From: Candidatus Zhuqueibacterota bacterium
GTDB taxonomy: Bacteria; Zhuqueibacterota; Zhuqueibacteria; Thermofontimicrobiales; Thermofontimicrobiaceae
DNA length: 64,000 bases
NCBI GenBank assembly: GCA_049322915.1
Contig: JBMOPW010000014.1
Span: 280,973-344,972 of the forward strand
Direction of reading: 5' to 3'
In this document: one piece after another, positions 9,014 to 34,046 of the stretch
How positions within the stretch are numbered: the stretch's first letter is position 1
How the letters are laid out: each line of letters begins with the position of its first letter
The notes under the pieces: model-generated
What the model was told of the DNA's origin: nothing
Database searches by the model: none
The model's input: only the letters and a program-made list of their open reading frames with translations
Translations under genes and position numbers: made by a program

Positions 9014-11677
9014 ATGAATATCGGAACTACTCTCAGGAAAATACTGTTCCTGATCGCGATGTTGACCTGTCCGGCGATTGGGCAGGATATGGTTCAGAGC
9101 GAAGCTGGAAATTTAATTCCAAACGCTTCATTTTTAGGGCTGCATTATGTGGAACGAATCGGGTACGCGCTGGATGGCGGCGGTGATGTTAACGGGGATG
9201 GCTATGATGACTTCGTGATCGGCACGTTCCACAATGGCGTGGTCGGGCAGGATGGAGGCGCCGTCTACTTAATTTTAGGGAGTTCCAGGTTAACACGTGG
9301 GATGAATACCAGTTTGTCCAACGCAGATGCCCGATTTTTAGGCGCGGCAGCGTTCGATGCGGCCGGCTATTCGGTCGCCTGTAACGGTGATTTAAACGGG
9401 GACGGCTTTGATGATTTCATCATTGGTGCGCCGGCCGGGAATGATTCAAAACCCAATTGGCCAGGGAAAGTCTATATCGTTTTTGGCAATGCCGGCGCTG
9501 CCTGGGGAAATTATTTTTATCTGGGGACAAGCAGCAATGTGGTTTTTGACGGTGAAAATGGCCAGGATCTGGCCGGGCTATCCGTCGCTTACATCGGCGA
9601 CTTGAATGACGATGGCTATGATGATTTTCTCTGCGGCGCTCCGTTCAATGATCAATATGGCGCCGGCGCCGGTAAAGCCTATCTGGTGCTGGGCGAAGGC
9701 GGCGCATGGGATAGCCATTCGTACCTGTCAGAAAGTGATGCCAGCTTTATCTTCGATCGTGACGGCTCGGAGGTGGGATATTCCGTCGCCGGCGTTGGAG
9801 ATATCAATAACGACGGCACGCCGGACCTGGCTATCGGCGCCATGGGCGCCAGCAAGGTGTTCATATTGTACGGTAGAAAAAATGTCAGTTGGGGGATGGA
9901 TTTCAATCTGCGCAATGCAGATTTACAATTGTACGGCAGAGAGAAAGGCGAGGATGAAGGCATCGGCTGGCGAATTGCCGGCAACGGCGACCTGAACGGC
10001 GATGGCATTTCCGATGTGATGATTTCCGCCATCCATAATCACCAGGGCGGCCAATTGGCCGGCAAAGTGTATGTCCTGTTCGGAAAGAACGGCGGCTGGG
10101 TGGAATCCGAGCTCAGTCTCGAAAGCGGCGATGCGTCTTATATTGGTGAAAATTCAGAGGACTACGCCGGCTGGGGATTATCGCTGGCCGGAGATGTGAA
10201 CCAGGATGGATTCGATGATTTTCTGATTGGCGCCTGGTACAATGATCAGAACGGAGCGGACGCCGGCAAGGCTTATTTGATCAATGGCAAGAGCAGCGGC
10301 TGGGTGAAGGATGTGCGGCTCGAGGAAGTCACAGATTACTTCCTGGGTGAGCGCGAGATAAATTACGCTGGTTTTGCCGTGAGCACTGTAGGCGATTTCG
10401 ATGGGGACGGCATCAGCGATTATATCGTTTCTTCTCCGTACAATAGCGAAGTGCAACAATGGAGCGGCGAAGTGCATCTCTTCGCCAGCCAGGAAATACC
10501 GTACTATATTTCTGGCACGATCAATTATACATTGACGGATCAAAAAATCCCTCGGGTTGCAATTCAATCTGCGAACGAACCGGAGGCCATTGCATACACA
10601 ACGTGGGCGGGCAATTACACATTATCTGTGACCGGCAAAATGGATCATCTGGTTTTTGCAGCGAAGGGATCGGGCGAACATACTGGCGCGGCTGTTACGT
10701 CCTATGACGCAGCATTGATCTCGAGATTGGCGGTCGGCCTGGGAGCGGATGATCCAGTCAATTCAGACGCGGCGGACGTGAATCTCGATAGTAAAATTAC
10801 GATGTACGATGCGGCTAACGTTTTGCGTTACGCAGTCTCACTGCCGCCGCTGGCCGGATCCCATGCCGGCGATTGGAAATTTCAACCGCAGCAGGTCAGC
10901 TATTCCTACGTTGTCAATGATTTCAGCAACCAGAATTACGATGCCTACATTGTCGGCGATGTGGATGCAAGCTGGACCACTCCCGATTCCGGTTTGAAAA
11001 AGCAGTTATTTGATGGAGAACTGAGTTCGAGGAAAATCGTCGCGTCGCGTGGTGAGATTTCAATACCGATTGAGATACCGGCGCAGACCAGGCTGCTGTC
11101 CTTTGATGTGGCCATGAATTACGATGCTGAGTTGCTTGAATTTGTCCGCATCGACAGGAACGCATCCCTGAGCGATTTCAATATCGCCCTGAACACCAGC
11201 CTGCCCAATAAACTGATCGCCGGCGGTTTTTCTGTCAACGAAGTGAATGTGAGCCAAACGCTTCTGACAGTTGTTTTTAAACCGAGGTTGACAACGTCTC
11301 AAAATGCACAAGTCTCTTTTGACCGGGTGGCAATCAATAATAGCGTATTGCATTTCAGCCCGCTTGAGATTGAAATAGGAGAATCGAACCGAGTGCCTGC
11401 GACGTTTGCCTTGCTGCAGAATTATCCCAATCCATTCAATAATGCCACAGCGATACCGCTGCACGTGGCGCAGTTCAGCCGCGTGACGGTTTCAATTTAC
11501 AACGCGCTGGGTGAGCATGTCACCACGCTGGTGGATGAAAACCTGAATCCCGGCGCGTACCAACTTTCCTGGGATGGAACGGATCAACATGGAGTGAGGG
11601 CAGCGTCCGGGGTGTATATTTGCAAAGCGGCATTCCCCTCAGCAACGCAGCACATGAAACTCATTTACATGAAGTAG
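9014..11677 (+). CDS. Secreted FG-GAP (integrin-alpha-like) propeller + dockerin + cohesin + type-A-like CTD protein
   Basis: Start moved to ATG 9014 after GAGGAG, giving a signal peptide. Seven GDxNxDGxDD repeats; dockerin-like DVNLDSKITMYDAANVLRYAV; cohesin-like ISIPIEI...SFDVAMNYDAELLEF; QNYPNPFN. Confidence 0.8.
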   Translation: MNIGTTLRKILFLIAMLTCPAIGQDMVQSEAGNLIPNASFLGLHYVERIGYALDGGGDVNGDGYDDFVIGTFHNGVVGQDGGAVYLILGSSRLTRGMNTSLSNADARFLGAAAFDAAGYSVACNGDLNGDGFDDFIIGAPAGNDSKPNWPGKVYIVFGNAGAAWGNYFYLGTSSNVVFDGENGQDLAGLSVAYIGDLNDDGYDDFLCGAPFNDQYGAGAGKAYLVLGEGGAWDSHSYLSESDASFIFDRDGSEVGYSVAGVGDINNDGTPDLAIGAMGASKVFILYGRKNVSWGMDFNLRNADLQLYGREKGEDEGIGWRIAGNGDLNGDGISDVMISAIHNHQGGQLAGKVYVLFGKNGGWVESELSLESGDASYIGENSEDYAGWGLSLAGDVNQDGFDDFLIGAWYNDQNGADAGKAYLINGKSSGWVKDVRLEEVTDYFLGEREINYAGFAVSTVGDFDGDGISDYIVSSPYNSEVQQWSGEVHLFASQEIPYYISGTINYTLTDQKIPRVAIQSANEPEAIAYTTWAGNYTLSVTGKMDHLVFAAKGSGEHTGAAVTSYDAALISRLAVGLGADDPVNSDAADVNLDSKITMYDAANVLRYAVSLPPLAGSHAGDWKFQPQQVSYSYVVNDFSNQNYDAYIVGDVDASWTTPDSGLKKQLFDGELSSRKIVASRGEISIPIEIPAQTRLLSFDVAMNYDAELLEFVRIDRNASLSDFNIALNTSLPNKLIAGGFSVNEVNVSQTLLTVVFKPRLTTSQNAQVSFDRVAINNSVLHFSPLEIEIGESNRVPATFALLQNYPNPFNNATAIPLHVAQFSRVTVSIYNALGEHVTTLVDENLNPGAYQLSWDGTDQHGVRAASGVYICKAAFPSATQHMKLIYMK

Positions 11678-11705
11678 GTCGTCGATTCAAATAAAGGAAA
11701 TCGCT

Positions 11706-14378
11706 ATGTTCAGAAATCCCAAATGGATCATTTTACTCAGCGCGTTATGTCTGATGTCGATTTCGGAAACAAGTCGCAGCCAGGAATCGGCTTCTGCCTT
11801 ATTGAAACCGATGGAGCGACTATCCCCATCCAGTTCATTTTATGGCGAATTGAACCTGGGCCGGCTTGGCTATTACCTATCCAGAGCAGGCGATGTGAAC
11901 CGGGACGGCTATGATGATTTTATGATTGCCGGCTACCATCACCATGTTCATGGCTGGAACTCCGGCGGCGTTTATCTGTTTTTGGGCAAATCGACCATCG
12001 ATTGGAGTCTCAACATGCTGGTGGGACAGGCAGCGAGCGCCCTTTTTTGTGGTTATCACGATTATGATTTTACCGGGTACAACATTGACGGCGGCGGCGA
12101 TTTCAACGGTGATGGTCTCAGCGATATGCTCATCGGCGCGCCCGGGAACTGGGATCGGGAGCCTCCATTCCCCGGCAAAGCATTTATCGTATTGGGTCGG
12201 GAGAATGCAGACTGGGGCATGAATTTCGTGCTGGAGTATGGCGCGGATGAGGACTTTTTGGGTGAACGAGATTATGATCAGTTTGGCTATGCCGTCTCGT
12301 TCATCGGCGATCTGAACCAGGATGGGTATGATGAAATTTTATGCAGCGCAGCGTTCAAAAATCTGCAATATTCCTGGCAGGGTAAAGTGTACCTGATAGC
12401 CGGGAATGCCCAGGGCTATCCCCGGGGCGCGTTAGCCGCGGAAAGCGCGGTGGCTTCGTTCATTTATCCGGCCAACGAAGCGAACGTCGGTAGCGCAGTC
12501 GCCGGGGTGGGCGATGTCAACAAGGACGGCATCCCGGATTTCGCCATTGGCGCAGCCGGCATTGGTAGGGTCTTTCTGCTGTTTGGCAGAACCGGCATGG
12601 ACTGGGGCAACCCTTTTAATCTGACAAATGCCGATGTCGTCTTTTTGCCGGAAGACGCGGAACGCGACGACTCCGGCTGGCAGGTAAAGGGTGTGAATGA
12701 TGTGAACGGCGATGCCATCGATGATTTTTTAATTTCCGGGCTACAAATAAATAACGACGCCGGCAAGACCTACTTGATTCTCGGACGGGAGAACTGGCCT
12801 GCGCGACAATTCTATTTATCCCAGGCAGATGCGTCCTTTTTGGGCGAAGGGTCGGAGCAACATTCCGGCGTGTCCATTGCAGGGGTGAACGATTTCAATG
12901 GCGACAACTATAATGATTTCATGATCGGCGCGCGCTATTACAGCGGCGGCAAATACCATCGCGGCAAAGCCTACGTGGTCACGGGAAAATCCGGCGGGTG
13001 GCAGCGAAATGTTCCGCTATCGGAAATCGAGATCAATTTCGTCGGACAGGATACAATTCACTGCGCCGGCTGGGGCGTCAGTGGCGCCGGCGATGTCAAT
13101 GCAGATGGCTGCATGGATATTCTCACGTCGGCCCCGTTCAACAGCGAATTCGATAAATGGGCGGGCGAAATTTATCTGTTCCTGGGGGATTATAATGTGC
13201 TCTCACTGACGGGAAAAGTAGCTCATGTCAACGGATTCTCAATTGCCGGCGCGATGGTCAAGGTGACTGCCAATGGTACCTTTCAAACGCTCACCGATAT
13301 CAGCGGGGAATATCGATTCCGGTTTTCGCCGTGCAACTCCGTGACAGTCTCAGCAACGAAAACGGAAGGCGCGGAATCTGCAAGCACAGCTATCTCGGCC
13401 TACGATGCGGCACTGGCCGCACAATTTGCCGTTGGTCTGCGACCGCTGGATGCAATTCAGCAGTCTGCCGCGGACGCGAACAGCGACGGCAAAGTGGGAT
13501 GTTTTGATGCCGCGCTCATTGCGCAGTATGCCGTGGGGCTGAACCTGGTTCCCTCATCTCAGGCTGGTGGATGGTTTTTCGAGCCAAAAAGCTATTTCTA
13601 TCAGTCGCTCTACTCGGATAAAATGAATGTCAATTTTACCGCGGGAATTCGGGGCGATGTGGACGGGAACTGGCAGGGCGCTGGTGAGCTGAAGAGAATA
13701 TCTCCTTCCAACGAGGTTCACATTCTGCCGGATAAAATTGATGTGAATGACCAGTCAACTGTCGTCATTCCGATTCAGTTAACGGATTATAACAAAGTCA
13801 TTTCTGCCGATATTGAGATAAATTACCCTGCGGATGTGTTGGAATTTGCCGGGATCGCGCCAACCAATTTCAGTCGTAAGTTTGCGACCGCCATAAATAA
13901 CACATCGGCCGGCCTTTTGAGAATCGCCATGTATACGATGGGACAACCCTGTCCGGGAGAGGAATTGCGTCTGCAATTCACGGTACTGAATAGAAATTAC
14001 GCCGGCGTTGCGCCGGTGTCCCTGACCGATTTGCGGGTGGATAATAAAAACGCCGTGGCCGATGAGACGACGCTGTTTTTTGGAACAGGTCAAAAACCGC
14101 TGACTCCCGTGTCGGTCAAAAATCTGCCCAATCCCTTCAATCCGGAGACGACGATTCATGTCACCAATGCAGTAACCGGACATGGCTCGGTCAATATTTT
14201 TGATGTGCTGGGCCGAAAGGTTCGGGAATTCGATCTCGGAGTGATTCAGCCCGGGGAGCAAAAAATTCTTTGGAATGGTCGGGATGAATATGGACAGGAT
14301 CTGGCCAGCGGCGTGTATCTGCTTCAATTCCGCTGCGGCGCCGATGTGACGCTGAATAAAATGATCAAAATAAAATAG
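11706..14378 (+). CDS. Paralogous FG-GAP propeller + dockerin + cohesin + CTD protein
   Basis: Signal peptide; seven FG-GAP repeats; ADANSDGKVGCFDAALIAQYAVG; VVIPIQL...SADIEINYPADVLEF; NLPNPFNP...KMIKIK. Confidence 0.8.
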   Translation: MFRNPKWIILLSALCLMSISETSRSQESASALLKPMERLSPSSSFYGELNLGRLGYYLSRAGDVNRDGYDDFMIAGYHHHVHGWNSGGVYLFLGKSTIDWSLNMLVGQAASALFCGYHDYDFTGYNIDGGGDFNGDGLSDMLIGAPGNWDREPPFPGKAFIVLGRENADWGMNFVLEYGADEDFLGERDYDQFGYAVSFIGDLNQDGYDEILCSAAFKNLQYSWQGKVYLIAGNAQGYPRGALAAESAVASFIYPANEANVGSAVAGVGDVNKDGIPDFAIGAAGIGRVFLLFGRTGMDWGNPFNLTNADVVFLPEDAERDDSGWQVKGVNDVNGDAIDDFLISGLQINNDAGKTYLILGRENWPARQFYLSQADASFLGEGSEQHSGVSIAGVNDFNGDNYNDFMIGARYYSGGKYHRGKAYVVTGKSGGWQRNVPLSEIEINFVGQDTIHCAGWGVSGAGDVNADGCMDILTSAPFNSEFDKWAGEIYLFLGDYNVLSLTGKVAHVNGFSIAGAMVKVTANGTFQTLTDISGEYRFRFSPCNSVTVSATKTEGAESASTAISAYDAALAAQFAVGLRPLDAIQQSAADANSDGKVGCFDAALIAQYAVGLNLVPSSQAGGWFFEPKSYFYQSLYSDKMNVNFTAGIRGDVDGNWQGAGELKRISPSNEVHILPDKIDVNDQSTVVIPIQLTDYNKVISADIEINYPADVLEFAGIAPTNFSRKFATAINNTSAGLLRIAMYTMGQPCPGEELRLQFTVLNRNYAGVAPVSLTDLRVDNKNAVADETTLFFGTGQKPLTPVSVKNLPNPFNPETTIHVTNAVTGHGSVNIFDVLGRKVREFDLGVIQPGEQKILWNGRDEYGQDLASGVYLLQFRCGADVTLNKMIKIK

Positions 14379-14380
14379 AG

Positions 14381-15178
14381 GTGGGTATGAAATGGTCCAG
14401 GCTCATGGTCGTATTGTGCGCATGCCTGATCATTTTTAACGGGGGGGAAAATGGTGCATCAGGCCAGGTTATCGTTCGGGTTCAGAATACGGCAACAACG
14501 CCGGATACAACGGTGAGCGTGCCTGTTCTCGTCGGTGATGTCACTGGCTATGGCATTATTTCTTTTCAATTCAGTGCGAAGTACGATTCACTTGTGCTGA
14601 GAGCGACGGATGTTTCGTTGGGGAATACCATTGCAGAAAGCTGGGGCGATGTTGCCAATAATCTTGAATCACCGGGGAACATGGTTGTCGGGGCATTTGG
14701 CACTGCGGCGCTTTCCGGCTCTGGCGCCTTGCTTTTCCTTGAATTTGATGTGATTGGTTCTGTCGGGGATTCAACCCGAATTGAAATAGAACAATTCAGT
14801 TTCAATAACAACAATCCGCCAGTCGCTGTCACGCAGGGAATGCTGCATATTGTCAGCTCAACCAGCGTCACCCGGGAAAACGCTCCCTTTATTCCCGACG
14901 ATGGCCAGTGGGTGAGTCACTATCCGGAGCCATTTCACACTGCGACGTCCATTGTGTGCCAAACAGAAAGAGCGGGGTTCATCGAGTTGTCGATTTACAA
15001 TATCCTGGGCCAGGAAATAGATCGGTTCAGTAGAATGACATCCGCGGCCGGGCGGCACACTTTTACCTGGTTAGCGAACAAACGTTTGGGCGCAATACTG
15101 GCCCCGGGGATTTATTTTTGTGTCGCCAGATTGGACGATCGCATCATTGGAATGAATCGGCTGGTGCGCATTGAATAG
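14381..15178 (+). CDS. Minimal secreted cohesin + CTD protein
   Basis: Signal peptide; VSVPVLVGDVTGYGIISFQFSAKYDSLVL...SGSGALLFLEFDV cohesin pattern; degenerate CTD HYPEPF...PGIYFC. Confidence 0.75.
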   Translation: MGMKWSRLMVVLCACLIIFNGGENGASGQVIVRVQNTATTPDTTVSVPVLVGDVTGYGIISFQFSAKYDSLVLRATDVSLGNTIAESWGDVANNLESPGNMVVGAFGTAALSGSGALLFLEFDVIGSVGDSTRIEIEQFSFNNNNPPVAVTQGMLHIVSSTSVTRENAPFIPDDGQWVSHYPEPFHTATSIVCQTERAGFIELSIYNILGQEIDRFSRMTSAAGRHTFTWLANKRLGAILAPGIYFCVARLDDRIIGMNRLVRIE

Positions 15179-15437
15179 AATTTGGATCCGAGAATATCGA
15201 TAGTACAAACGATGTGGGATTTCCTGATGGGGCTTTGGCAGTAAGGGAGATGGAGGTGTGCATCGATCTGAATGTGGGAATCGTGAGGAGCGAAGGAAAA
15301 AGCAACACACATTTGAAAGGCATCAGGCATAAAATCAGTGTCGGTTGGGCGACGCCACCGGGTTAAATGCCGGATGCGTGTTTAGCATTATCGTTCAACG
15401 CAGGACAACGATGGATACTGGAAGCGAGGAATAACGT

Positions 15438-17876
15438 ATGCTGAAGAAAATTGGTCTGCTATTATTATTCATCTTTATTGTGGTCTCGAATGGATTGGCG
15501 CAGGTGCAGGTGACCGTGCCGGATACGACGGCGAAAAGTGGTCTTGAAGTCACCATCCCGGTCCGGGTTTCCAATTGTTCGAATTATGAAATTTTTTCCT
15601 ATCAATTTACATTGACCTATAACAGCGCGGTGCTGACGCCGGTTCGCCTGGAAACTGCCAACACGGTGACATCGAGCTGGCCAACGCCGGTGATGAACAA
15701 TTCCACTGCCGGGGTGCTGGAAATTGGCGGCTATGGATCCAATAAAATTGTCGGGGGAGGCAGCCTGGTAAAAATTGTATTCCAGGTCATCGGCAATCCC
15801 AATCAGGTATCGAATCTGAATCTGTCGTATTTTGAATTCAATGACGGTAATCCCGGCGCAATTATCGAAAACGGCAGCATCACAGTGACAATGACCGCGC
15901 TGGCTGTGACGATTACTACCAATGTGCCGGGCAATACGCAGGTGATCGTGGATGGTACTCCATTCACCGCGCCGCATGTTGCATACTGGGAATCCGGAAC
16001 GCAGCACGAGATTTCTGCGGCGAGTGTGCAGACTCTCGGGACTGACCGCAGATACCTTTACCAATCCTGGAGCGATGGCGGCGGACAAACGCACACAATC
16101 ACCGTCACTCAATCGACAACGATCACAGCGACTTATTCCACCCAATATTACCTGACTGTCCAATCAACCTATGGCAATCCCCAGGGGAGCGGCTGGTACA
16201 ACGCCGGGGCGATCGCGTATTTTTCTGTGGAGTCGGAAATTCTGAGCGATGCCACCACGAAACGTCGATTCGCTTCGTGGTCTGGCAGCGGCTCTGGCAG
16301 CTATTCCGGCGCTCTTCGGGAAGCGAATGTGACGATGAACGCGGCGATTGTTGAAACAGCGAACTGGACGACGTCCTATCTGGTTCAAATCAGTTCAGTC
16401 CACGGCACGCCTTACGGCGCCGGTTGGTACAATGCCGGGACCGTCGTCAGCTTTGGCATTGATTCGACGCAGATAAATCGATGGAATGCGCATTCTCAAT
16501 TCAGTTCCTGGGCAGGCACCGGGACAATCAGTTACAGCGGGACTTCGCCGCAATCGACAGTCACAGTGAATAGCCCCATCACCGAAGTGGCGCAGTGGAA
16601 TGATGAATTCCTCGTGCAGACCGGCTCATCGCCGCAGGGCATTCTGACCGTCCCCGGCGCCGGCTGGTATCCCAAAGGCTATCCGTTCACAACGATCAGC
16701 GCGCCAGTCACCATCAATAAAGATGGAACAGCGTATGAATTCAAAGGCTGGCTCGTCAATGACCAGGTTGTCTCAGGCAATCCCATCACGCAGGCTGTCA
16801 CATTGCCAATGACAATCATCGCCGATTACAGTCAGGATATTACTGTGACCATCACCACGAGCGTCGGCGTTGGGACAAAAGTGCTGGTTGATGGCGCAGA
16901 AAAAAGCGCGCCGCATACGGCTTCCTGGACGGCTGGCTCGTCCCACAGCATCGGCGTCGCCAGCGAGCAGAATGGCATTCCCGGAACGCGGTACAGTTAC
17001 ATTCAATGGCAGCACGGCGGCAGTCAGGTGCAAACCGTGAGTCCAACCACCAATTTAAATTATGTGGCCAATTTGAAAACCGAATTTTTCCTGGACGTGT
17101 CCACTGATCCGGCGGATATCCTCACGCTGACCGGCGAAGGCTGGTACGAAGCCAATGAGGTCGTGGAACTGGATTCGGCGCCGGCATCATTCAAATCCGG
17201 ACAGAGCAGCTATCGTCTTCTGCACTGGCTGGAGGACGGTGTGGTCAGGTCCGAAAATCCAATCAGCATTGTCATGAATGAGCCGCACACAGCCGTGGCG
17301 AAATTCCAGAGCGGTTATTACATCTCCGGGACAATTACGTTTGTGGGAGCAAGCCCGGCGCCTGTGACGATCAATGTTTCCGGAATGGAAAATTTCACCC
17401 TGCAAACCAAAGCCGATGGCACCTATTTGATTGGCGGCCTTCTGGCTGGAAATTATCAACTCACCCTCCTTCATCCCAATTTCCGGTTCGAGCCGGCGAT
17501 CCGGACGTATCAGATCTCTAAAAACGAAGAGTATCAGTATTACGTCGCCTTCTACGTCTCTGCTGTCGTAAGCGATGATCGCTCGGGCGGAGCGACCCCT
17601 GATAATTTTTACCTGGGACAGAATTATCCCAATCCGTTTTCAGACCTGACGCATATCGACTATCACCTGAAAAATACGGAACATGTGACTATATCGATTT
17701 ACAACATTCGCGGACAACTGGTAAATCGTTTGATTGATCAGCAACAGCCTGGCGGCCTGTATCGGATTCTCTGGGATCGCACTGACTTCCGCGGGATTGT
17801 CGCGCCGGCCGGAGTTTATTATTACCGAATCGATGCCGGCGATTTTATGGATAAAAAGAGCATGATCATTTTTTAA
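15438..17876 (+). CDS. Secreted cohesin + InlB-B-like repeats + prealbumin-like domain + CTD protein
   Basis: Signal peptide; N-terminal cohesin; repeated GxGWYxxG and WSDGG motifs; QNYPNPF CTD. Confidence 0.75.
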   Translation: MLKKIGLLLLFIFIVVSNGLAQVQVTVPDTTAKSGLEVTIPVRVSNCSNYEIFSYQFTLTYNSAVLTPVRLETANTVTSSWPTPVMNNSTAGVLEIGGYGSNKIVGGGSLVKIVFQVIGNPNQVSNLNLSYFEFNDGNPGAIIENGSITVTMTALAVTITTNVPGNTQVIVDGTPFTAPHVAYWESGTQHEISAASVQTLGTDRRYLYQSWSDGGGQTHTITVTQSTTITATYSTQYYLTVQSTYGNPQGSGWYNAGAIAYFSVESEILSDATTKRRFASWSGSGSGSYSGALREANVTMNAAIVETANWTTSYLVQISSVHGTPYGAGWYNAGTVVSFGIDSTQINRWNAHSQFSSWAGTGTISYSGTSPQSTVTVNSPITEVAQWNDEFLVQTGSSPQGILTVPGAGWYPKGYPFTTISAPVTINKDGTAYEFKGWLVNDQVVSGNPITQAVTLPMTIIADYSQDITVTITTSVGVGTKVLVDGAEKSAPHTASWTAGSSHSIGVASEQNGIPGTRYSYIQWQHGGSQVQTVSPTTNLNYVANLKTEFFLDVSTDPADILTLTGEGWYEANEVVELDSAPASFKSGQSSYRLLHWLEDGVVRSENPISIVMNEPHTAVAKFQSGYYISGTITFVGASPAPVTINVSGMENFTLQTKADGTYLIGGLLAGNYQLTLLHPNFRFEPAIRTYQISKNEEYQYYVAFYVSAVVSDDRSGGATPDNFYLGQNYPNPFSDLTHIDYHLKNTEHVTISIYNIRGQLVNRLIDQQQPGGLYRILWDRTDFRGIVAPAGVYYYRIDAGDFMDKKSMIIF

Positions 17877-17899
17877 ATGAGCATTAAAGGGAAGACATC

Positions 17900-20656
17900 A
17901 TGAGAAATACTTCAATTTTATGTTTGGGAATTCTGCTATTTTTCAGCGTTGCTGCGTTGCAGGCATCTGTGGAAGTGACGCTGCCGGATACCTCCTATTT
18001 TCCCGGAGACACGCTGCGCGTGCCGGTTCGCGTCTCTGACCTGACCGGGTTGGAGATTTACTCCTATCAGTTCATGCTGCATTACGATCCGGCCGTGGTT
18101 CAAATGCTGGGCGTGGATTCGACCGGGAGCCTCACCCAGGCATGGGGCAGCGCGGTCATGAATCTGTCATCGCCGGGGACTGTAACGCTCGGGAATTACG
18201 GCACCTCCGTTCTCAGCGGCGCCGGGGTTCTGATGTATCTGGAATTCGCTTTGATCGGCCAGTCCGATGATTCGACCCAATTGGATGTTCAGAACTTTGA
18301 ATTCAACGATGCAAATCCGGCCGCGGTCGTCACGGACGGATCGATTAAAATTCTGTATGAACCGGTCGTGGTCACGTTCAATGTCAATATTCCCGAAAAT
18401 ATGGAATTCTTCATCGATGGCGTCAGACACAATTTTCCATTTGAAACAGAATGGGGCGCCGGTTCGGTTCATACAATTTCAACAACATCGCCGCAACAGA
18501 TCAGTGCAAACACCCGCGCTGTATTTGAACGCTGGAGCGATGGCGGGGCCATGAGTCACACAGTTTCGGTGACCGAAAATACGCAATTCACGCTGTACAT
18601 GGATAAGCAATACCTGCTGGCAGTGAGTTCGCAGTACGGCGTCATCCAGGGCCAGGGCTGGTATAGCGCCGGCGAAAGCGCCACGTTCTCGGTGGACTCG
18701 GTGGTTGTCCAGGACAATGGTACGCGACAGAGATTCACCGGCTGGAATGGCGTGGGGACTGGTTCATACACCGGCGCGGAACGGACGAACACCATCGTCA
18801 TCACAGCGCCAGTCACCGAAACAGCAACGTGGAAGACGCAATATTTTGTCAGCGTCAAGTCCGCGCACGGAACGCCTGTGGGAGAGGGCTGGTACGATGG
18901 CGGTACCTCCGCGTCCATCAGCATCGATTCGCTGGTGAGCGGCGCGCCGGGAACGCGGTATCTTTTCGAAAGCTGGACTGGCAGCGGCGCGGGTAGTTAC
19001 AGCGGCAAAGATCGATTGGCTCAGTTCACCGTTTCCGGGCCAATCATCGAAAAAGCATTTTGGCAAACACAATTCCATTTCTCCTTGAACTCTGACCCGG
19101 CGGATCTGGTCATTTTTAAAAACGCCGGCTGGTATAATAAAAATACTGTGGTCAAAGGCGATGTCGCGCCGGAATTCGCTGGCACAGCCGATACAACCTA
19201 TCGATTTCAGACGTGGACGCTCGACGGCCAGGCAGTTTCTGTCAATCCCGTCGAAACCATGATGGACACTTCCCATGTCGCGGTTGCGGCCTACGGCATC
19301 GATAGCGTTCGGGTGAAAATTGTCACCGAGGTTGCGGACGATATCGTCATCTCCCTGGACGGTGTGAGCGAGCCTCTTCCGTACGAGGCGTTCTGGCGCT
19401 ACCAATCCGACCATGTCGTGAGCGTCGCGGAAGTCCAATTTGCCAGCGACTCGACCGCACGTTACGCGTTTGCATCGTGGAGCAATGGCGGCGCGCGGGA
19501 ACAGACGCTGAGAGCGACGGCAGCGCAGGTCCTCGAACTGAATGTGACGACAGAATTTCACCTGGCTGTGGGGACAAATCCGGCCGGTCTGATTGAGTTT
19601 CAGGAAAGCGGCTGGTATCTGCCGGGCGCGTCTGTTGCGGTGCAGCCGGCGCCGCCTGTGGTTGTGGCTGGTCAGGATACATTTTTCTTCAAGGGCTGGC
19701 AAATCGACGGAGCGCCGCGCGAAGGCAATCCTGTTTCCGTCCTCATGGACGAGCCGCACGAGGTGGTGGCGATCTATGCCAATGTGTATTCGATTATTGG
19801 AATGGTCAGGAATACCCGGCAGACTTCGCTGAATGGCGCCGTGGTGATTTTATCCGGCGACAAAACGGATACGCTGGTGACGGATGATTCCGGCGAATTT
19901 TTCTTCAGCGATCTGGCGCCAGGGGATTACCGCGTGACGCCCCGACTGGAGGGCTTTTCATTCGAGCCGGAATTTCGCGAGTACACCTCCCTGAACCAGA
20001 TGCAACTGCACCAGGATTTTCTCGGGACTGACATTCAGATGCCGGTTGTTGCGTTATTGGCTCCCACCGGCGGAGAGCAATTTCAGGGCGCGACCGAGGA
20101 TACGATCCATTGGTCGGTGAGCGACAATGGCGGCATCGATTCGGTTTTCATCGAATTCAGCTCCAACAACGGCGGCCTCTGGCAACTGCTCGCTGCGTTC
20201 AATGGCGCGACAGTGGAGACAATTGCATGGAGCATCCCGGACATCAACAGCACGACCTGTAAAATCAGGGTGCGGGCGATTGATTTCGACGGCAATGTGG
20301 CGGTCGATGCCTGCGATAGTCCGTTTACGATTATCGGGAATTCCGGGATCCAGGCCGATCCCGAGCCTCAAATTCCCGGCGAATTTCATGTCGCACAAAA
20401 CTATCCCAATCCGTTCAACAGCGCGACTGTCATTCCCATTCAACTTCCGGAGAAAAGTCTGGTGGCCATTCGGATATACAATCTGGTCGGCCAGGAGATC
20501 TGTTTGCTGCTGAACCAGGAACTGCCGGCCGGACATCATCGCATCCACTGGGAAGCGAAAAATACATCGTTGGCAGAAATGGGTTCCGGCATTTATTTTT
20601 ACCGGGTCGAAGCAATGGGCCGGGTATTCACCGGGCGGCTGGTTTATCTCCGCTGA
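17900..20656 (+). CDS. Paralog: cohesin + InlB-B-like repeats + carboxypeptidase-regulatory-like domain + Ig + CTD
   Basis: Same architecture as 15438-17876, plus a PTGGE...WQLL Ig domain; QNYPNPFN. Confidence 0.75.
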   Translation: MRNTSILCLGILLFFSVAALQASVEVTLPDTSYFPGDTLRVPVRVSDLTGLEIYSYQFMLHYDPAVVQMLGVDSTGSLTQAWGSAVMNLSSPGTVTLGNYGTSVLSGAGVLMYLEFALIGQSDDSTQLDVQNFEFNDANPAAVVTDGSIKILYEPVVVTFNVNIPENMEFFIDGVRHNFPFETEWGAGSVHTISTTSPQQISANTRAVFERWSDGGAMSHTVSVTENTQFTLYMDKQYLLAVSSQYGVIQGQGWYSAGESATFSVDSVVVQDNGTRQRFTGWNGVGTGSYTGAERTNTIVITAPVTETATWKTQYFVSVKSAHGTPVGEGWYDGGTSASISIDSLVSGAPGTRYLFESWTGSGAGSYSGKDRLAQFTVSGPIIEKAFWQTQFHFSLNSDPADLVIFKNAGWYNKNTVVKGDVAPEFAGTADTTYRFQTWTLDGQAVSVNPVETMMDTSHVAVAAYGIDSVRVKIVTEVADDIVISLDGVSEPLPYEAFWRYQSDHVVSVAEVQFASDSTARYAFASWSNGGAREQTLRATAAQVLELNVTTEFHLAVGTNPAGLIEFQESGWYLPGASVAVQPAPPVVVAGQDTFFFKGWQIDGAPREGNPVSVLMDEPHEVVAIYANVYSIIGMVRNTRQTSLNGAVVILSGDKTDTLVTDDSGEFFFSDLAPGDYRVTPRLEGFSFEPEFREYTSLNQMQLHQDFLGTDIQMPVVALLAPTGGEQFQGATEDTIHWSVSDNGGIDSVFIEFSSNNGGLWQLLAAFNGATVETIAWSIPDINSTTCKIRVRAIDFDGNVAVDACDSPFTIIGNSGIQADPEPQIPGEFHVAQNYPNPFNSATVIPIQLPEKSLVAIRIYNLVGQEICLLLNQELPAGHHRIHWEAKNTSLAEMGSGIYFYRVEAMGRVFTGRLVYLR

Positions 20657-20684
20657 AATCAATAAAAATTTTTGTTTTTGAATC

Positions 20685-20720
20685 AGGCCAGCGCTGTAAC
20701 AGGCGTTGGCCTTTTTTATT
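20685..20720 (+). terminator. Intrinsic terminator
   Basis: AGGCCAGCGC-loop-GCGTTGGCCT followed by TTTTTT. Confidence 0.8.
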
Positions 20721-20798
20721 ATTGCTGCAATTGGTCTCCTGTTCATATCTTGAATTGCGTAAGCAAAATCTTCACACCGAGAAATTTGAATTTTTCCC

Positions 20799-20826
20799 TT
20801 GACTTTTGGCAAAATATTTATATTTT
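20799..20826 (+). promoter_or_regulatory. Putative sigma70 promoter for the gene at 21000
   Basis: TTGACT (20799-20804), 16-nt spacer, TATTTT, in an AT-rich gap just after a terminator. Confidence 0.35.
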
Positions 20827-20999
20827 ATTTGTTGTATTTCTTACATTTCTATCTTACCTCAAAAATTTAATGCCAACACACATGATCTACATGTCAAACG
20901 TACTTCAAAAAATCTAATAATTCAAAGGAGGTGGTATATCCAATTGTTATATTAAACCGTAGGAATTAATTAACTCATTAATCAATTAAGGGGTAACGT

Positions 21000-23900
21000 A
21001 TGGAAAGAAAGGTATTGGCATGTTTGCTGGTGATTGCGGTGCTTCTCATTGGAGCTTTCGCTGCCAGCGCACAAACAGTAAATGTTACGATTCCCAATAG
21101 TGGCGGAGCAACCGGGGCAAGCATTTCCATCCCAATCATGGTGAGTGATGTGAGCGGTCTCGATATATTTTCCTATAATCTCACACTCACATTCGACCAG
21201 ACCGTGCTGGATGCAACTGGTGTGACCGTTGTTGGTGCATTGACCGAAGGTTGGGGTGCTCCGACACTATCTGATACGGATGGACAAATCGTGATAGCCG
21301 GCGCCGGCGCCACTGCATTGACCGGGACTGGCGCGCTCGTGTACATCAATTTCACTGTTCTGGGAGGGATTGGCTCGCATTGCGATCTGACCTTCACCGA
21401 AATGACGTTCAATGAAGGCACACCTGCAGCCACCGCGACCGGCGGCACGTTTGCTGTGGCAAAACTGTTTGAAGACTGGAATATCGCAACTACAGGCGCA
21501 CATCGCGGAGTTGGCGTCTGTCCGTTGAGTGGACGCGTCTATATCAGCAACACAACAAACCGGCGAATTAACTATTTTAATGCAGGGAACGAAACCGGCA
21601 CGCCGGATGGCTATATTCTCAATACAGGCTGGGATGCCTGGTTAGGCCCCTATGGTCTTGACGTCGCTGATGACGGAATGGTATACGTAACGACCTATGG
21701 TGCTACCAAATCCATATTCAGAATTACCCCGACCGGGGAAGTCACAAACATAAAAACCGTCGGTGAGAATATGCGCGCTCTCACTGTATATGGCGGTGGT
21801 GTGAATACCGTTATTTACACGCTGGAGAACAGCGGCAAGGTTTTCAAACTAACCACAGACGGAACCACGTGGACGATGACAACGCTGTTCACAATCGGAA
21901 ATACTGAAAATGCGTCCATCGCCGTCAGCCCGGATGGCAACACAATTTACACCAATGGTTACGGTACCGCCATCCATAAATGGGATGCCGCCGGCAATCC
22001 GGACGCTGCTTTCAATCAATCTCCGGCCAGTTGTATTGCGGTTCGCCTGAGCGAAGATGGTAGCCGGTTGTTCGCGATGTACAATGCGGTCGTCGGTGGA
22101 AACAGCAGCTCGTATCTCGGCGAACTGGATCCGGCCACTGGCGCCATGATCGAATCCATTATTGTCGGACCATTGGGCGTTTCACCGACTTACAATGTCG
22201 TCAATGCGTTTGACATTCTGGATGATCGGGATTTCTTCTGGGCATCCGCCGGTCAATATCGTGGTAAAGCCCATGACGCATCGGTGACAGTCCCCAATCG
22301 GCCTCCGTACGCCGTTGCCGGGACGGATCAGTTGGTGGAAATTTACACCGAGGTGACGCTCAACGGTTCCGGTTCAGTGGACATCGATCTGGATCCAATC
22401 ACCTATGCCTGGACTCAGCTCTCCGGTCCGACTGCCACGCTCTCTGATCCAACAGCCGCAAGTCCTACGTTTACACCCAATGCAACGGGACAATATGTCT
22501 TCCAGCTGGTGGTGAACGATGGCGCTCTGGACAGCCCTGCCGATCAGGTGACCATCACTGTTTTTGAAAAAGATTTCAGTGCGAATTTTAATGTGGATGG
22601 CGATCGCAATCGGGATCTTCCCAACTGGGGAATTTTCTCGGTGACGAGCCGCTATTCAACGCCGGAATGGGATTCTACCGGCGGCGTCGGCGGTAGCGGC
22701 GCGCTGCGCGTTCGCGATGGCGGCTGGGGATTTGCCATTGAGCGAAAACTCAATGCGACCCCGGGGACAAATTTTAAGCTGACCGCGGATGTTCTCGTTC
22801 ATGGGACCGATGTTCCGCTCTATTTCCGCGTCTCCGGCCTCACCGTGGAAAATGTCGATGTGCAGATTCAAACCAATAATACGAATTTCGGCTCCATCGA
22901 ATTGACTGGCATCACTGTCAATGGAACCGGCTATCTCCAGATTCTGGGTGAAACCGCCGGCGGCGCTGATACGGTGTGGGTCGATAATATCGTATTCGAC
23001 GACGACGCGACCCTGAATACCTATACCCTGTCCGGCAAGGTGACGCTGAGCGATCTGCCGACTGATATGTCCGGTGCAAATGTCCTGGTCGTTCAAGCCG
23101 AAAAAAGCGCAGTCACAGACACTCTGGGTAATTACTCCGTCAATGGTTTAATTGCCGGCACCTATGATGTAAAATTCAGCAAATTGAATTATAAAGATTT
23201 GGTCCAGGAAAATGTCGAAATGCTGGGCGATGTTATACTGGATGTGACGCTGCAACGCAATCTACCGCCGGTGGCCGATGCCGGGGTGGATAACCTCAGC
23301 GCACAGGCCGCCACCTATGTCGTTCTGGATGGCTCCGGTTCTTCGGACCCGGATAATGATTCCCTCACCTACAAATGGACTTCAGCGGATCCTTCGGTGA
23401 TTATGGTGACGTCATTGACGAATCCTATCGCCGGATTCCGTCCTTCGGAGATCAATGACTACAAATTCTACCTGGTCGTGAACGATGGCACCGAAGACAG
23501 CGCAAAAGACAGCGTGTTGGTCTCCGTCACCATGGAAGCTCCGGCGCCGCTGGGCTATGAATTTGTCGATAAATTTGCCTACGTCTACGCCGCACTCGGC
23601 GTCGCCTGCGACCCGGAAGGGAAAATCTGGGTTGGTTGTTATAGCTACGGCTCTGAGAAAAACCTGGCCGTCTGGAACGCGGATGGCACGCGACCTGACT
23701 GGCAGCCAGTCATGTCCGGGCTCGTTGGCGATCAGACTGTCACGACCGCCGGGAATTGCTACTGCGTGGAAGTTGATTTCGATGGCAATATCTATTTCAG
23801 CAATGCCACAGAACATGTCGTCATGAAATTCGACTACAAAGATGGCACGCCTCTCGGCGGTGTTCGGCTTGCAGCCGGCAGCCCCATCATGAGCGTCGAT

Positions 23901-25343
23901 CAGAATGGCTATTTGTTCGTGGGCACAGTCACCGGCGATACGGTGTGGGTGTATGACAAAGATTTCAACTTCGTCAGCAAGTCCTATGTTACGTATATCG
24001 CCCGCGACATCGAAATTTCACCGGATGGCACTGTCCTTCTTGTGGGACAATTCAGCGGAACCGTGACCCGTTTCGAAGGAACTCCGGCGACCGGTTACGT
24101 GGCGATCGATGATCTTCCCGGCCCATTCGCTTCATCCGATGGACTGGGCGCGACCACGAATATCAGCTACGACAAGTACGGCGCTCTCTGGGTGACCGAA
24201 GAACATACCACCTGGCCGCAGAAAGATTTCATTCATATCTATACGCCGGATCTGGTGACTCGCGAGACATTGCTCCCGAACGAAGCTGCTCCCTGGGATA
24301 ACCCGCGCGGAACAACGTTCGACCATACGCTGGGCGATTCTCTCTTTTACCAGGTTGACTTTGGCTCAAACAATCCGTGGATTCAGCGATGGGCAATTTC
24401 CGGCACCAGTCTGCCGCCTACCTACTATTCCATTCCTGAAGTGGCAGCAGTCGATACCAATGGTTATCCGCTTCTGTCGGATAAAAAAGTCCGCGTCAAA
24501 GGTATCATCACTGTCGCCGGAGAATTCGGCGTGACCGGCCCGGCCTACATTCAGGACGCCATGGATTCCATTGGCGTTGCCATTTATGACGGCTCAAAGG
24601 TGCTGATCGATTCAGTGAAAATCGGTGATGAAGTTGTCGTCTCCGGGTATGTCGATTTTTATAACGGCCTCACGGAAATCAGTCCGGTGGATGAGTTCAC
24701 CATTCTCTCGTCCGGCAATATCGTCGAACCGATGCTGATTACCTGCGCTGATCTGGGTGATGTAGTCGGCGAGCGCTTCCAGTCTGCGCTGGTCAAAATC
24801 GAAAATGTGCACACTGACGAAACGACGTTCCCGAGCAATGCCAACATCCTTTTCTCCGACAAAACCGGCATCGCCACGATGCGCATTGATAAAGACACCG
24901 ATATTCCCGGCGTTGCTGTACAGGCAGATTCGTTCGACGTGGTCGGAGTGATCACGCAATTCGATTCGCAGTCACCCTACTGGGGCGGCTACCAGATTAT
25001 GCCTCGCAGCAAAGGCGATATTCCCAAAGCGACTGGTGTGAACGAGAATGCGGATGGTCTGCCCAGGATATTTGCGCTGTTCCAGAACTATCCGAACCCG
25101 TTCAACCCGGTGACCACAATCAAGTATGATCTGCCAAAAGATTGTCTCGTTGAAATTCAGATTTTCAACGTATTGGGACAAAAGGTGAGAACCCTCGTTT
25201 CCGCACCGCAACAGGCAGGGCATCAACTGATTTTGTGGAATGGCTTGAATGATTCCGGTGTCTCCGTTGCCACCGGCACCTATATTTACAAAATCAAGGC
25301 CGCCGATTTTGTTGAGACAAAACGAATGACGTTGATTAAGTAG
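21000..25343 (+). CDS. Large secreted cohesin + beta-propeller + PKD + CBM-like + OB-fold + CTD protein
   Basis: Signal peptide; N-terminal cohesin; NHL-like repeats; two PKD motifs (LNGSGSVDID, LDGSGSSDPD); GDEVVVSGYVDFYNGLTEI OB-fold motif; QNYPNPFNP. Confidence 0.75.
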   Translation: MERKVLACLLVIAVLLIGAFAASAQTVNVTIPNSGGATGASISIPIMVSDVSGLDIFSYNLTLTFDQTVLDATGVTVVGALTEGWGAPTLSDTDGQIVIAGAGATALTGTGALVYINFTVLGGIGSHCDLTFTEMTFNEGTPAATATGGTFAVAKLFEDWNIATTGAHRGVGVCPLSGRVYISNTTNRRINYFNAGNETGTPDGYILNTGWDAWLGPYGLDVADDGMVYVTTYGATKSIFRITPTGEVTNIKTVGENMRALTVYGGGVNTVIYTLENSGKVFKLTTDGTTWTMTTLFTIGNTENASIAVSPDGNTIYTNGYGTAIHKWDAAGNPDAAFNQSPASCIAVRLSEDGSRLFAMYNAVVGGNSSSYLGELDPATGAMIESIIVGPLGVSPTYNVVNAFDILDDRDFFWASAGQYRGKAHDASVTVPNRPPYAVAGTDQLVEIYTEVTLNGSGSVDIDLDPITYAWTQLSGPTATLSDPTAASPTFTPNATGQYVFQLVVNDGALDSPADQVTITVFEKDFSANFNVDGDRNRDLPNWGIFSVTSRYSTPEWDSTGGVGGSGALRVRDGGWGFAIERKLNATPGTNFKLTADVLVHGTDVPLYFRVSGLTVENVDVQIQTNNTNFGSIELTGITVNGTGYLQILGETAGGADTVWVDNIVFDDDATLNTYTLSGKVTLSDLPTDMSGANVLVVQAEKSAVTDTLGNYSVNGLIAGTYDVKFSKLNYKDLVQENVEMLGDVILDVTLQRNLPPVADAGVDNLSAQAATYVVLDGSGSSDPDNDSLTYKWTSADPSVIMVTSLTNPIAGFRPSEINDYKFYLVVNDGTEDSAKDSVLVSVTMEAPAPLGYEFVDKFAYVYAALGVACDPEGKIWVGCYSYGSEKNLAVWNADGTRPDWQPVMSGLVGDQTVTTAGNCYCVEVDFDGNIYFSNATEHVVMKFDYKDGTPLGGVRLAAGSPIMSVDQNGYLFVGTVTGDTVWVYDKDFNFVSKSYVTYIARDIEISPDGTVLLVGQFSGTVTRFEGTPATGYVAIDDLPGPFASSDGLGATTNISYDKYGALWVTEEHTTWPQKDFIHIYTPDLVTRETLLPNEAAPWDNPRGTTFDHTLGDSLFYQVDFGSNNPWIQRWAISGTSLPPTYYSIPEVAAVDTNGYPLLSDKKVRVKGIITVAGEFGVTGPAYIQDAMDSIGVAIYDGSKVLIDSVKIGDEVVVSGYVDFYNGLTEISPVDEFTILSSGNIVEPMLITCADLGDVVGERFQSALVKIENVHTDETTFPSNANILFSDKTGIATMRIDKDTDIPGVAVQADSFDVVGVITQFDSQSPYWGGYQIMPRSKGDIPKATGVNENADGLPRIFALFQNYPNPFNPVTTIKYDLPKDCLVEIQIFNVLGQKVRTLVSAPQQAGHQLILWNGLNDSGVSVATGTYIYKIKAADFVETKRMTLIK

Positions 25344-28263: not shown

Positions 28264-28334
28264 GGATAATTACCCAATGCGCATTCACTTCATGCCATTG
28301 AGTCCTGTAATATTATTTCAATGAACGATAAGTT

Positions 28335-28399
28335 TATGGATAAAATATGGGTATTTTATGGATACAAAATGTAGATAACTTATGGATAGAATATGGATG
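28335..28399 (+). repeat. Six phased TATGGATA-like repeats upstream of and overlapping the fic start
   Basis: Units start at 28335, 28346, 28357, 28370, 28381 and 28392. Confidence 0.75.
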
Positions 28400-29457: not shown

Positions 29458-29465
29458 TGTAGATG

Positions 29466-29522
29466 CCATGGCGCTCAAAAACGTGGACGGCAGTCACAAG
29501 ATTTCTTTGATGTTTTCGTTTT
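29466..29522 (+). repeat. 57-bp direct repeat, copy 2
   Basis: CCATGGCGCTCAAAAACGTGGACGGCAGTCACAAGATTTCTTTGATGTTTTCGTTTT. Confidence 0.95.
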
Positions 29523-29711
29523 GAGCGGTCGGGAAAATTCCTATATATAGGAATAAGTTAATTTATGATGGAGCCTAATAGTATTATGTTGGGCTTCTTT
29601 AATAGTTTTTATTCGGTTGTCAACCTTTTATATAGAAACAAGATTAGATAGTAGGATGAATAGGATATATTTACTATCAGATGCCTATCAATTTTTTTTT
29701 GGAGCAAGAAT

Positions 29712-30685: not shown

Positions 30686-30717
30686 TGACGGCAGACGGAA
30701 CTGGAGGAGTTCAGAAG

Positions 30718-32523: not shown

Positions 32524-32536
32524 ATAAGGGGAGAAC

Positions 32537-34021: not shown

Positions 34022-34046
34022 GTTCAAAAAATTAGGTAGGAATTTA

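Follow-up and report, generated by a model that had tools for sequence, protein, structure and literature searches.

The DNA analysed here (hereafter the window) is a stretch of 64,000 nucleotides (nt) from a Candidatus Zhuqueibacterota bacterium (assembly GCA_049322915.1, contig JBMOPW010000014.1, positions 280,973 to 344,972). Positions 9014–25343 of the window hold six consecutive genes (g1–g6), which represent a conserved operon-like set of genes for cell-surface proteins of a diderm bacterium. The first two, g1 and g2, encode proteins in which an FG-GAP propeller is followed by a dockerin-cohesin cassette and by a C-terminal domain (CTD) of the kind found on type IX secretion system (T9SS) cargo. 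As two compact structural models, residue covariation and a fixed spacing argue, the dockerin of this cassette is most likely held by its own downstream cohesin. The other four proteins carry a free cohesin at the N-terminus, and these cohesins, judged by their sequences, are a class of their own. The genes and modules are listed below (aa, amino acids; HMM, hidden Markov model).

g1, 9014–11677, plus strand: 887 aa; signal peptide, 7-blade FG-GAP propeller, dockerin-cohesin cassette, T9SS type-A CTD.
g1 cassette, 10502–11398, plus strand: residues 497–795; prealbumin-like beta-sandwich with inserted dockerin, linker, cohesin.
g1 dockerin, 10691–10831, plus strand: loop 1 degenerate, loop 2 canonical (DVNLDSKITMYD); 30.5 bits in a six-frame search.
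g2, 11706–14378, plus strand: 890 aa, paralogue of g1; FG-GAP propeller, cassette, CTD.
g2 cassette, 13200–14099, plus strand: dockerin 13389–13529, cohesin 13731–14054; E-value of 4.9 × 10−100 with the local cassette HMM.
g3, 14381–15178, plus strand: 265 aa; signal peptide, free N-terminal cohesin (14477–14812), CTD; start 2–8 nt behind g2.
g4, 15438–17876, plus strand: 812 aa; free N-terminal cohesin (15504–15884), InlB-B-like repeat stalk, beta-sandwich, CTD.
g5, 17900–20656, plus strand: 918 aa; free N-terminal cohesin (17969–18352), repeat stalk, beta-sandwich, Ig domain, CTD.
g6, 21000–25343, plus strand: 1447 aa; free N-terminal cohesin (21078–21410) on a payload protein with two propeller-like regions, PKD domains, a beta-sandwich and CTD.

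The anatomy of the cassette was derived from AlphaFold2 models and from 17 aligned sequences, paralogues and orthologues of the FG-GAP proteins. This ~300-residue unit begins with five strands of a prealbumin/CarboxypepD_reg-like sandwich and a three-helix dockerin, after which the sandwich is finished by three further strands that bear the conserved W-x-F-x-P and G-D-V-x-G-x-W motifs. A short low-confidence linker, the cohesin and, about ten residues further on, the T9SS tail make up the remainder. The top covarying residue pair of all, 16–149, connects both halves of the sandwich and fits the dockerin as an insert. Dockerin and cohesin are found in one chain in g1, g2 and all 17 aligned paralogues and orthologues. 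In 17 out of 17 aligned sequences, as well as in eight of the nine aligned dockerins of the host genome, the first Ca loop is either degenerate or shorter by one residue, while the second loop is canonical (D-x-N-x-D-x-x-x-x-x-x-D) and both helices keep a Y-D-A-A-L-type motif. For this reason the module is not a standard duplicated dockerin with two Ca-loop-helix segments; it retains both helices and loop 2 only, and Pfam Dockerin_1 matches begin at profile position 5–20.

AlphaFold2 returned a predicted template modelling score (pTM) of 0.86 for the g1 cassette and of 0.85 for a 23%-identical cassette found on a nuclease-like cargo protein. Given the low-confidence linker, such values are hard to reach otherwise than by a compact unit, in which the cohesin would be confidently placed. 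Residue covariation was examined by mean-field direct coupling analysis (DCA) of 185 non-redundant cassettes. The dockerin-cohesin pairs 68–242, 75–244, 109–244 and 72–200 take ranks 4, 7, 11 and 14 overall, and the top 60 contain 11 dockerin-cohesin pairs versus a single sandwich-cohesin pair, equal numbers being possible. After shuffling of the cohesin halves, the best dockerin-cohesin score fell from 2.16 to 0.91–1.16 in four out of four shuffles. Residue sizes within the pairs are compensatory (Ala with Tyr/Phe, Leu with Ala), and the pairs link one side of dockerin helices 1 and 3 to cohesin strands 3 and 6 (numbered from the model). Within the dockerin loops, the covarying positions are 9/10, 14, 17 and 8, 11, 17, 20; together with strands 3 and 6, we take these to be the known type I recognition positions and binding face. 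The spacing between sandwich and cohesin is 26–47 residues, and in 128 of 189 cassettes it is 29–32. An arrangement with the dockerin gripping two cohesins on two faces was considered and dropped, as the two helices share one cohesin strand as covariation partner; the two helices of a dockerin form a single binding surface.

The covariation also bears on two rival explanations. The first is head-to-tail or domain-swapped self-assembly, in which the dockerin would bind the cassette cohesin of the next copy and form dimers or chains. Dockerin-cohesin covariation is equally expected between copies, tandem triple cassettes occur, and homo-polymerisation has a stated precedent in Ruminococcus bromii Amy4 (PMC12663171). 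We nevertheless hold this arrangement to be improbable, given that a single chain was closed at high pTM twice, that the tight spacer length suggests a geometric constraint inside one chain, and that each subunit is anchored separately by its own CTD. The second is that no cohesin-dockerin binding takes place at all, the modules being structural spacers or Ca-binding Ig-like domains in a cluster that arose by tandem duplication of T9SS cargo genes. Clear paralogy inside the cluster, Pfam scores close to the thresholds and the degenerate loop 1 agree with it. The cassette is best conserved in its dockerin helices (Y68, D69, A70, D103 and A104 are among the invariant columns), the covariation is specific to dockerin-cohesin pairs, and gene order is maintained at 35% protein identity, all of which makes an absence of binding the least probable of the explanations considered here.

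Profile searches and structural comparison support the identity of the modules. The preliminary description of this DNA, made from its letters alone, had proposed six co-oriented genes, each encoding a signal peptide, a cohesin and a T9SS type-A CTD, and this layout was confirmed by Pfam, NCBIfam and the g1 model; the modules proved to be genuine cohesins and dockerins in profile and Foldseek searches. It had also called for HMM checks of three modules, which were passed in part. The Pfam cut-off for Cohesin (PF00963; 24.1 bits) was exceeded in five of the six proteins (g2, 24.8; g3, 37.8; g4, 58.6; g5, 51.2; g6, 42.6 bits), while g1 gave no Pfam cohesin match at E-values ≤ 0.01. A profile built from g1 orthologues matches solved cohesins in PDB (2xdh; E-value, 2.2 × 10−5) as well as dockerins, and cohesins are essentially all of the best PDB matches listed by Foldseek for the AlphaFold2 model of the g1 cassette (predicted local distance difference test score, pLDDT, 87.8; probability, 1.00; template modelling score, TM, 0.57–0.67), including 5nrm_A (E-value, 9 × 10−8; TM, 0.64). 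The model, its Foldseek matches and the orthologue profile thus place g1 in the predicted nine-strand jelly-roll cohesin fold. The Dockerin_1 (PF00404) cut-off of 22.9 bits was exceeded by g1 (24.5 bits) and missed by g2 (18.0 bits), with orthologues at 17.4–29.7 bits; the g2 dockerin segment is kept in all 17 aligned sequences. FG-GAP was detected in both proteins, and the combination of FG-GAP, dockerin and cohesin stands for g1 and g2. Seven repeats had been claimed for each, and Pfam matched seven stretches in g1 (E-value, 3.3 × 10−40) and five in g2 (E-value, 9.6 × 10−33). The Ca-binding DxDxDG-type loops of these repeats are visible in the sequence.

FlgD_ig/Por_Secre_tail matches were found by Pfam in all six proteins, and the T9SS type A sorting domain TIGR04183 (cut-off, 23 bits) was above cut-off in five of them (g1, 25.5; g2, 26.8; g4, 37.2 bits), with g3 reaching only 21.8 bits. 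Read by eye, the N-termini of all six resemble signal peptides, with basic residues at the start, then a hydrophobic run, then an A-x-A/Q-like site. Further Pfam matches include CarboxypepD_reg in g2, Flg_new_2, CarboxypepD_reg and Big_7 in g5, and K319L-like PKD, SGL (34.8 bits) and CarboxypepD_reg in g6. In agreement with the preliminary description, none of the six proteins matches a glycoside hydrolase family in Pfam at E-values ≤ 0.01. The start of g1 was set at ATG 9014, which agrees with the orthologues better than GTG 8942.

The cassette is not confined to the locus. The host genome (6.25 Mb, 45 contigs) contains nine full cassettes and one canonical dockerin with cohesins on both sides, and the genome-wide dockerin census that had been recommended showed a cohesin after the dockerin in the same open reading frame (ORF) in 10 out of 10 cases. 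Among the cargo carried by cassettes in this genome are propellers of the FG-GAP/ASPIC and BNR types, a protein with a lamin tail plus endonuclease/phosphatase, and a C39-like peptidase domain. The genome dockerins were first split into four of dockerin-then-cohesin and four of cohesin-then-dockerin order; this was overruled by the cassette profile, by which a normal cassette is merely preceded by a free-class cohesin in the second group, the order always being sandwich-dockerin-cohesin. At E-values ≤ 10−10, the cassette profile matches 64 of 101 sampled genomes of the phylum (a tally that includes the unpublished G105), and most matches cover the full profile length. Three tandem cassettes are found in single ORFs of ~1,500 aa (G072:C164:22359-25016, G036:C1:19406-22069, G068:C127:4607-7276, G074:C12:368435-371059 and G052:C24:21544-24159); such proteins look like a string of self-contained beads.

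Among 1.84 billion cluster representatives, the profile matches 29,584 at E-values ≤ 10−3, 8,883 at ≤ 10−10 and 1,622 at ≤ 10−30. The distance from the cassette end to the C-terminus is 80–119 residues, i.e., one tail length, in 135 of 189 cassettes. Payloads were surveyed in 52 representatives, mostly single-cassette proteins of 421–1,494 aa, picked from the best 150. FlgD_ig was found in 47 and Por_Secre_tail in 36 of these, and the payloads comprise FG-GAP (12), PKD, InlB-B repeats, GDSL esterases (4) and GH114 (2).

The genome of the host has 20 cohesin matches in 19 cohesin-bearing ORFs. Since six of these 19 ORFs of a 6.25-Mb genome adjoin here, and since their order is kept in relatives, the cluster exceeds chance. 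Six relatives from two families of the order preserve the arrangement of the genes at protein identities down to 35%, which is in line with the cluster being a conserved unit. The complete order is repeated in a relative of the same genus, and the core is kept in three further genomes of the own family and two of the second family. Its members are two genes for FG-GAP/dockerin/cohesin proteins plus one cohesin gene of ~260 aa and one of ~815 aa, behind which there are often a third FG-GAP paralogue and another cohesin gene, of ~918 aa; the order FG-GAP, FG-GAP, ~260-aa, ~815-aa, (third FG-GAP), ~918-aa is seen in G001, G009, G013, G008 and G018, and partly in G016. Orthologues of g3 (258–265 aa) lie directly behind the second FG-GAP gene in five of the six relatives, and the g3 start is 2–12 nt behind that gene in five of the seven loci compared, all from the family of the window. 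Full-length orthologues of g4 share 35–65% identity. The position of g6 is variable: in G018, malectin and BACON domains accompany an N-terminal cohesin there, and in G013 and G008 the place is taken by a GH20 beta-hexosaminidase gene that lacks both tail and cohesin (L091:962-3046 (-) and L092:1474-3540 (-)). Among the genomes of named species no full-length relative of g1 was found, only propeller/tail matches and two partial cassette matches, L033 and L022; the best tail matches there are from Calditrichaceae, Zixibacteria, GN15, KSB1 and Ignavibacteria/Melioribacteraceae. Because, of the relatives, only that of the same genus has it next to the cluster, a PorV/PorQ-like gene was rejected as a member of the unit.

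The N-terminal cohesins of g3–g6, described earlier as mutually similar, are alignable from the signal-peptide cleavage site on and share 24–35% identity with that of g4. Their profile recovers g3–g6 at E-values of 10−54 to 10−67 and cassette cohesins at only 9 × 10−9 to 5 × 10−4. Elsewhere in the host genome, a further small protein has a cohesin of this free class at its N-terminus, and four cassettes are directly preceded by one. Three tandem copies (each with an E-value of ~10−30) and a T9SS tail are found in a mini-scaffoldin of 1,041 aa (G000:C20:45244-48369 (-)). Free-class cohesins are present in 76 of the 101 phylum genomes, including ORFs of ~2,000–2,500 aa with at least seven copies (e.g., in G041:C10). 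The assembly had been described as scaffoldin-free, which holds at the locus and fails beyond it, given the three-cohesin protein of the same genome and the multi-cohesin proteins of relatives. In a tree of 21 genome cohesins one of the 18 inner branches is well supported, and there are hints of a g3/g4/g5 group (91/94) and of a g1/g2/C26 group (88/78). The co-occurrence of cassettes and free cohesins in the 101 genomes gave no clean answer and no conclusion was drawn from it, because each profile cross-matches the other cohesin class near the thresholds.

In three genomes without a cassette match (G054, G022 and G037), an ORF of ~1,400 aa ending in a full canonical dockerin lies directly 5' of a gene with many free-class cohesins in tandem; the dockerin and cohesin coordinates are G054:C26:5199-5378 then 6141 onward, G022:C22:34433-34612 then 33656 downward, and G037:C85:3142-3321 then 4084 onward. 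For G054 the multi-cohesin ORF has 2,243 aa and for G022 it has 2,376 aa; in G037 the cohesins are distributed over two ORFs of ~1,000 and 1,285 aa. This arrangement is a conserved plug-then-scaffoldin gene pair, and on account of such neighbouring genes the free cohesin class looks like a true dockerin receptor.

These observations are the background of a further rival, assembly in trans, in which the free cohesins of g3–g6 would capture the g1/g2 dockerins, the cis cohesin acting as a temporary cap or a weaker competitor. This would yield heteromeric complexes and, through them, cross-links among the surface proteins of one cell or of different cells. In its favour, FG-GAP/dockerin genes and free-cohesin genes are linked across two families, with the tight spacing of g3 noted above, and the genome offers no other plug for its ~14 free-class cohesins, all 10 dockerins preceding a cohesin. 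The tandem free-class cohesins of relatives (seven or more per ORF), the canonical C-terminal dockerin gene directly 5' of such ORFs in genomes without a cassette match and the interface-type residues retained in the free cohesins fit as well. Complex prediction for the whole g1 cassette with Ca and the g4 cohesin gave an interaction prediction score from aligned errors (ipSAE) of 0.32 (runs of 0.32, 0.34 and 0.29), the best of three controls being 0.00, which lends weak support to this pairing; across the runs, the partner pLDDT was 88 and contacts agreed by at least 91%. The ipSAE pass mark is reached by 116 of 157 solved complexes and by two of 215 mismatches, and scores of 0.60 or less account for only 18 of the 157 solved complexes and for both passing mismatches. 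The prediction tool rates a pass at 0.32 as more often wrong than right unless the guess is likely beforehand, and this one may stem from likeness to solved complexes. The capture of FG-GAP heads by N-terminal cohesins, as put forward in the preliminary description, is thus met by a weak pass only. Moreover, covariation and the two high-pTM models put the cis cohesin on the dockerin face, and capture is unnecessary for surface display, since every protein has its own anchor. We regard assembly in trans as a possible but doubtful explanation, still the strongest of the rivals.

Several points count against pairing of the dockerin with its own cohesin. The compactness of the cassette was inferred from pTM alone, and the docking of the domains by AlphaFold2 may reflect memory of solved complexes. 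The DCA of 185 sequences is underpowered, and noise prevails past about rank 60, the top 100 holding 17 dockerin-cohesin versus 12 sandwich-cohesin pairs. Only three to four pairs exceed the shuffle ceiling, shared ancestry is controlled in part, and the covariation would be the same for an intramolecular clasp and for a swap between protein copies. The linkage of FG-GAP and free-cohesin genes is unexplained by a purely cis clasp and suggests a physical partnership. The free cohesins of the locus retain Gly-Tyr/Phe at the covarying strand-6 positions, at which the g6-type cohesin has Ala-Ala, and a canonical full dockerin stands 5' of the multi-cohesin genes in the three genomes without a cassette match. 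The role of the propellers as adhesins is putative. Even so, the two models, the covariation and the fixed spacing leave the own cohesin as the most likely partner. The dockerin plus cohesin that had been described in g1 and g2 is one copy of a phylum-wide cassette, apparently with its dockerin held in cis, and this weakens the proposed assembly kit, for which intramolecular-only binding had been named as refuting.

The export route is indicated by the gene content of the host. Its genome encodes SprA/Sov (893.6 bits summed; cut-off, 200) and two PorU sortases (868.7 and 818.5 bits; cut-off, 420), and all of the 19 listed cohesin- or dockerin-bearing ORFs have a T9SS-type tail, 18 of them confirmed by Pfam, so the earlier assignment of the proteins to T9SS type-A cargo stands. 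In Porphyromonas and other Bacteroidota, the type-A CTD is removed by cleavage, and a surface glycolipid serves as the anchor of the protein. By analogy with these bacteria, the six proteins would be cleaved by PorU at the CTD and tethered to the outer membrane.

In the mechanism that we propose, and to which we assign about an even chance, all six proteins would be displayed on the surface, with g1 and g2 as self-clasped pedestals and g3–g6 as open sockets at graded distances. The proteins would be exported by the Sec pathway and then by type IX secretion via the type-A CTD, followed by PorU cleavage and outer-membrane tethering as in Bacteroidota. g1 and g2 would hold integrin-like, Ca-binding FG-GAP heads on a compact pedestal beside the membrane anchor, in which the sandwich-nested dockerin is clasped by the next cohesin of the same chain through the usual cohesin face, so that the cohesin-dockerin pair of these proteins would be mainly a built-in cis clasp rather than a free plug. 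g3–g6 would present free cohesins at the N-terminal tip, g3 at the surface, g4 and g5 on long stalks and g6 on a variable payload. Candidate ligands of the free sockets are the cassette dockerins, through exchange with the cis cohesin, an obvious choice because these dockerins are the only plugs found in the genome. Module identities, cluster conservation, the spread of the cassette, its predicted compactness and the covariation are shown computationally; anchoring, pairing in cis instead of by swapping, the adhesin role and trans capture are the parts of this picture that we infer.

A related reading treats the cis cohesin as a cap, which would silence the nested dockerin during export and be displaced at the surface by free-class cohesins; we consider it unlikely. 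If it were true, more than 1,600 families of T9SS cargo, adhesins and enzymes alike, would share an exchange-based capped-plug system, the outer surface of KSB1-type and other bacteria of the Fibrobacteres-Chlorobi-Bacteroidetes (FCB) group would be organised by capped plugs, and the locus would be a set of dedicated propeller heads and sockets at graded heights. With the clasp as the preferred reading, the pair is a nested self-clasping tail directly before the type IX signal, present in thousands of predicted proteins of uncultured diderms. If the clasp is real, it would be a new structural use of the cohesin-dockerin pair as an intramolecular pedestal or cap, and cellulosome-like calls made from domain counts in metagenomes would need re-reading, because a dockerin that has its own cohesin beside it is not necessarily a free plug. 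A compact test case is at hand in the locus, where two plug and four socket proteins stay together over a long evolutionary distance.

Intergenic gaps are short inside g1-g2-g3 and g4-g5, and amount to 259 nt before g4 and 343 nt before g6. A terminator-like hairpin is located between g5 and g6; because of its position 3' of g5, g6 is probably a separate transcript. Terminator-like sites overall number 22 versus a shuffle mean of 22.2, the hairpin behind g5 resting on position and strength only, and a sigma-70 promoter scan gave overall no more matches than in shuffles. The first 28 kb of the window form a run of nine T9SS-related genes, interrupted solely by a B12-radical SAM gene. Around positions 28000–36000 there is an AT-rich stretch (GC content of 0.35–0.36 versus ~0.50), possibly a foreign islet bordering the cluster. 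More T9SS-type cargo is encoded further downstream, namely a GHL10 glycosyl-hydrolase-like protein with a FlgD_ig tail (53061–54890, plus strand) and a Golvesin_C/Ig-like protein (55037–57670, plus strand). The remaining features of the neighbourhood are as follows.

Big_1 protein, 26–7030, plus strand: 2,334 aa, perhaps extending 5' of the window; ten Big_1/invasin-like Ig domains, T9SS tail.
B12-radical SAM gene, 7180–8643: 5' of the cluster.
Terminator-like hairpin, 20685–20712, plus strand: 3' of g5; 11-bp stem, T run.
F5/8-type-C protein with T9SS tail, 25439–27277: 3' of the cluster.
PorV/PorQ-family outer-membrane barrel, 27292–28263, plus strand: NF033709, 89.6 bits versus a cut-off of 90.
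Fic/DOC gene, 28393–29457: inside the AT-rich stretch.
DUF559/restriction-endonuclease-like gene, 34020–34862: inside the AT-rich stretch.

Cohesin-dockerin pairing is a textbook case of modular extracellular assembly, known almost exclusively from the cellulosomes of Gram-positive bacteria. Cohesin and dockerin modules are reportedly widespread outside cellulosomes, sometimes with both in one protein (a survey attributed to Peer et al., 2009), and in anaerobic methanotrophic (ANME) archaea a cohesin-dockerin system is known or proposed for adhesion. A literature search of partial coverage did not find the cassette or the locus described, nor dockerin, FG-GAP and cohesin together, and the main text of the Zhuqueibacterota paper mentions neither cohesin, dockerin nor T9SS. 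The conserved operon of FG-GAP and free-cohesin genes seems to be new, and so, above all, does the nested dockerin with a cis cohesin before a T9SS tail, with its wide spread and the evidence for self-pairing.

A cellulosome combines a multi-cohesin scaffoldin with dockerin-tagged degradative enzymes, and neither is found at the locus. With the clostridial type I complexes (1ohz, 2ccl, 5nrm) the locus shares the cohesin fold and the paired helices with a YDAAL-type motif. Unlike these complexes, it has one canonical Ca loop, a dockerin inserted in another domain and a partner encoded in cis, and it lacks scaffoldin and enzymes.

Three further systems resemble the locus in some respects. For Candidatus Stygibacter (Cloacimonadota), a cellulosome-like complex has been proposed from genomes only (Front Microbiol 2021, PMC8542988). 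It resembles the locus in that cohesin and dockerin proteins occur in an FCB-type diderm and attach to the surface via the conserved T9SS C-terminal domain. The Stygibacter system has a multi-cohesin scaffoldin of 3,755 aa and dockerin-tagged hydrolases; the locus, in contrast, has a single cohesin per protein, no hydrolases, own anchors and a nested dockerin that has its own cohesin behind it. Cag_2037/Cag_2038 of the Chlorochromatium epibiont (Chlorobiota), for which modelled binding and a non-cellulosomal role in adhesion are described (bioRxiv 10.64898/2026.03.19.712371), are likewise neighbouring genes of an FCB bacterium; one product is a long Ig-repeat protein that starts with a cohesin, and the dockerin is on the protein encoded next door. 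They are a two-gene pair with type I export and a terminal dockerin, without cis cohesin or FG-GAP heads. Amy4 of R. bromii carries cohesin and dockerin in one chain and is stated to homo-polymerise, its dockerin having been removed against aggregation (PMC12663171). Amy4/Sca1 and the cassette are alike in having both modules on one polypeptide, self-association being proposed for the former. Amy4 is a GH13 enzyme of a Gram-positive host with a free C-terminal dockerin, whereas the proteins of the locus have a sandwich-inserted dockerin ~30 residues before the cohesin, a predicted closure in cis and a T9SS tail.

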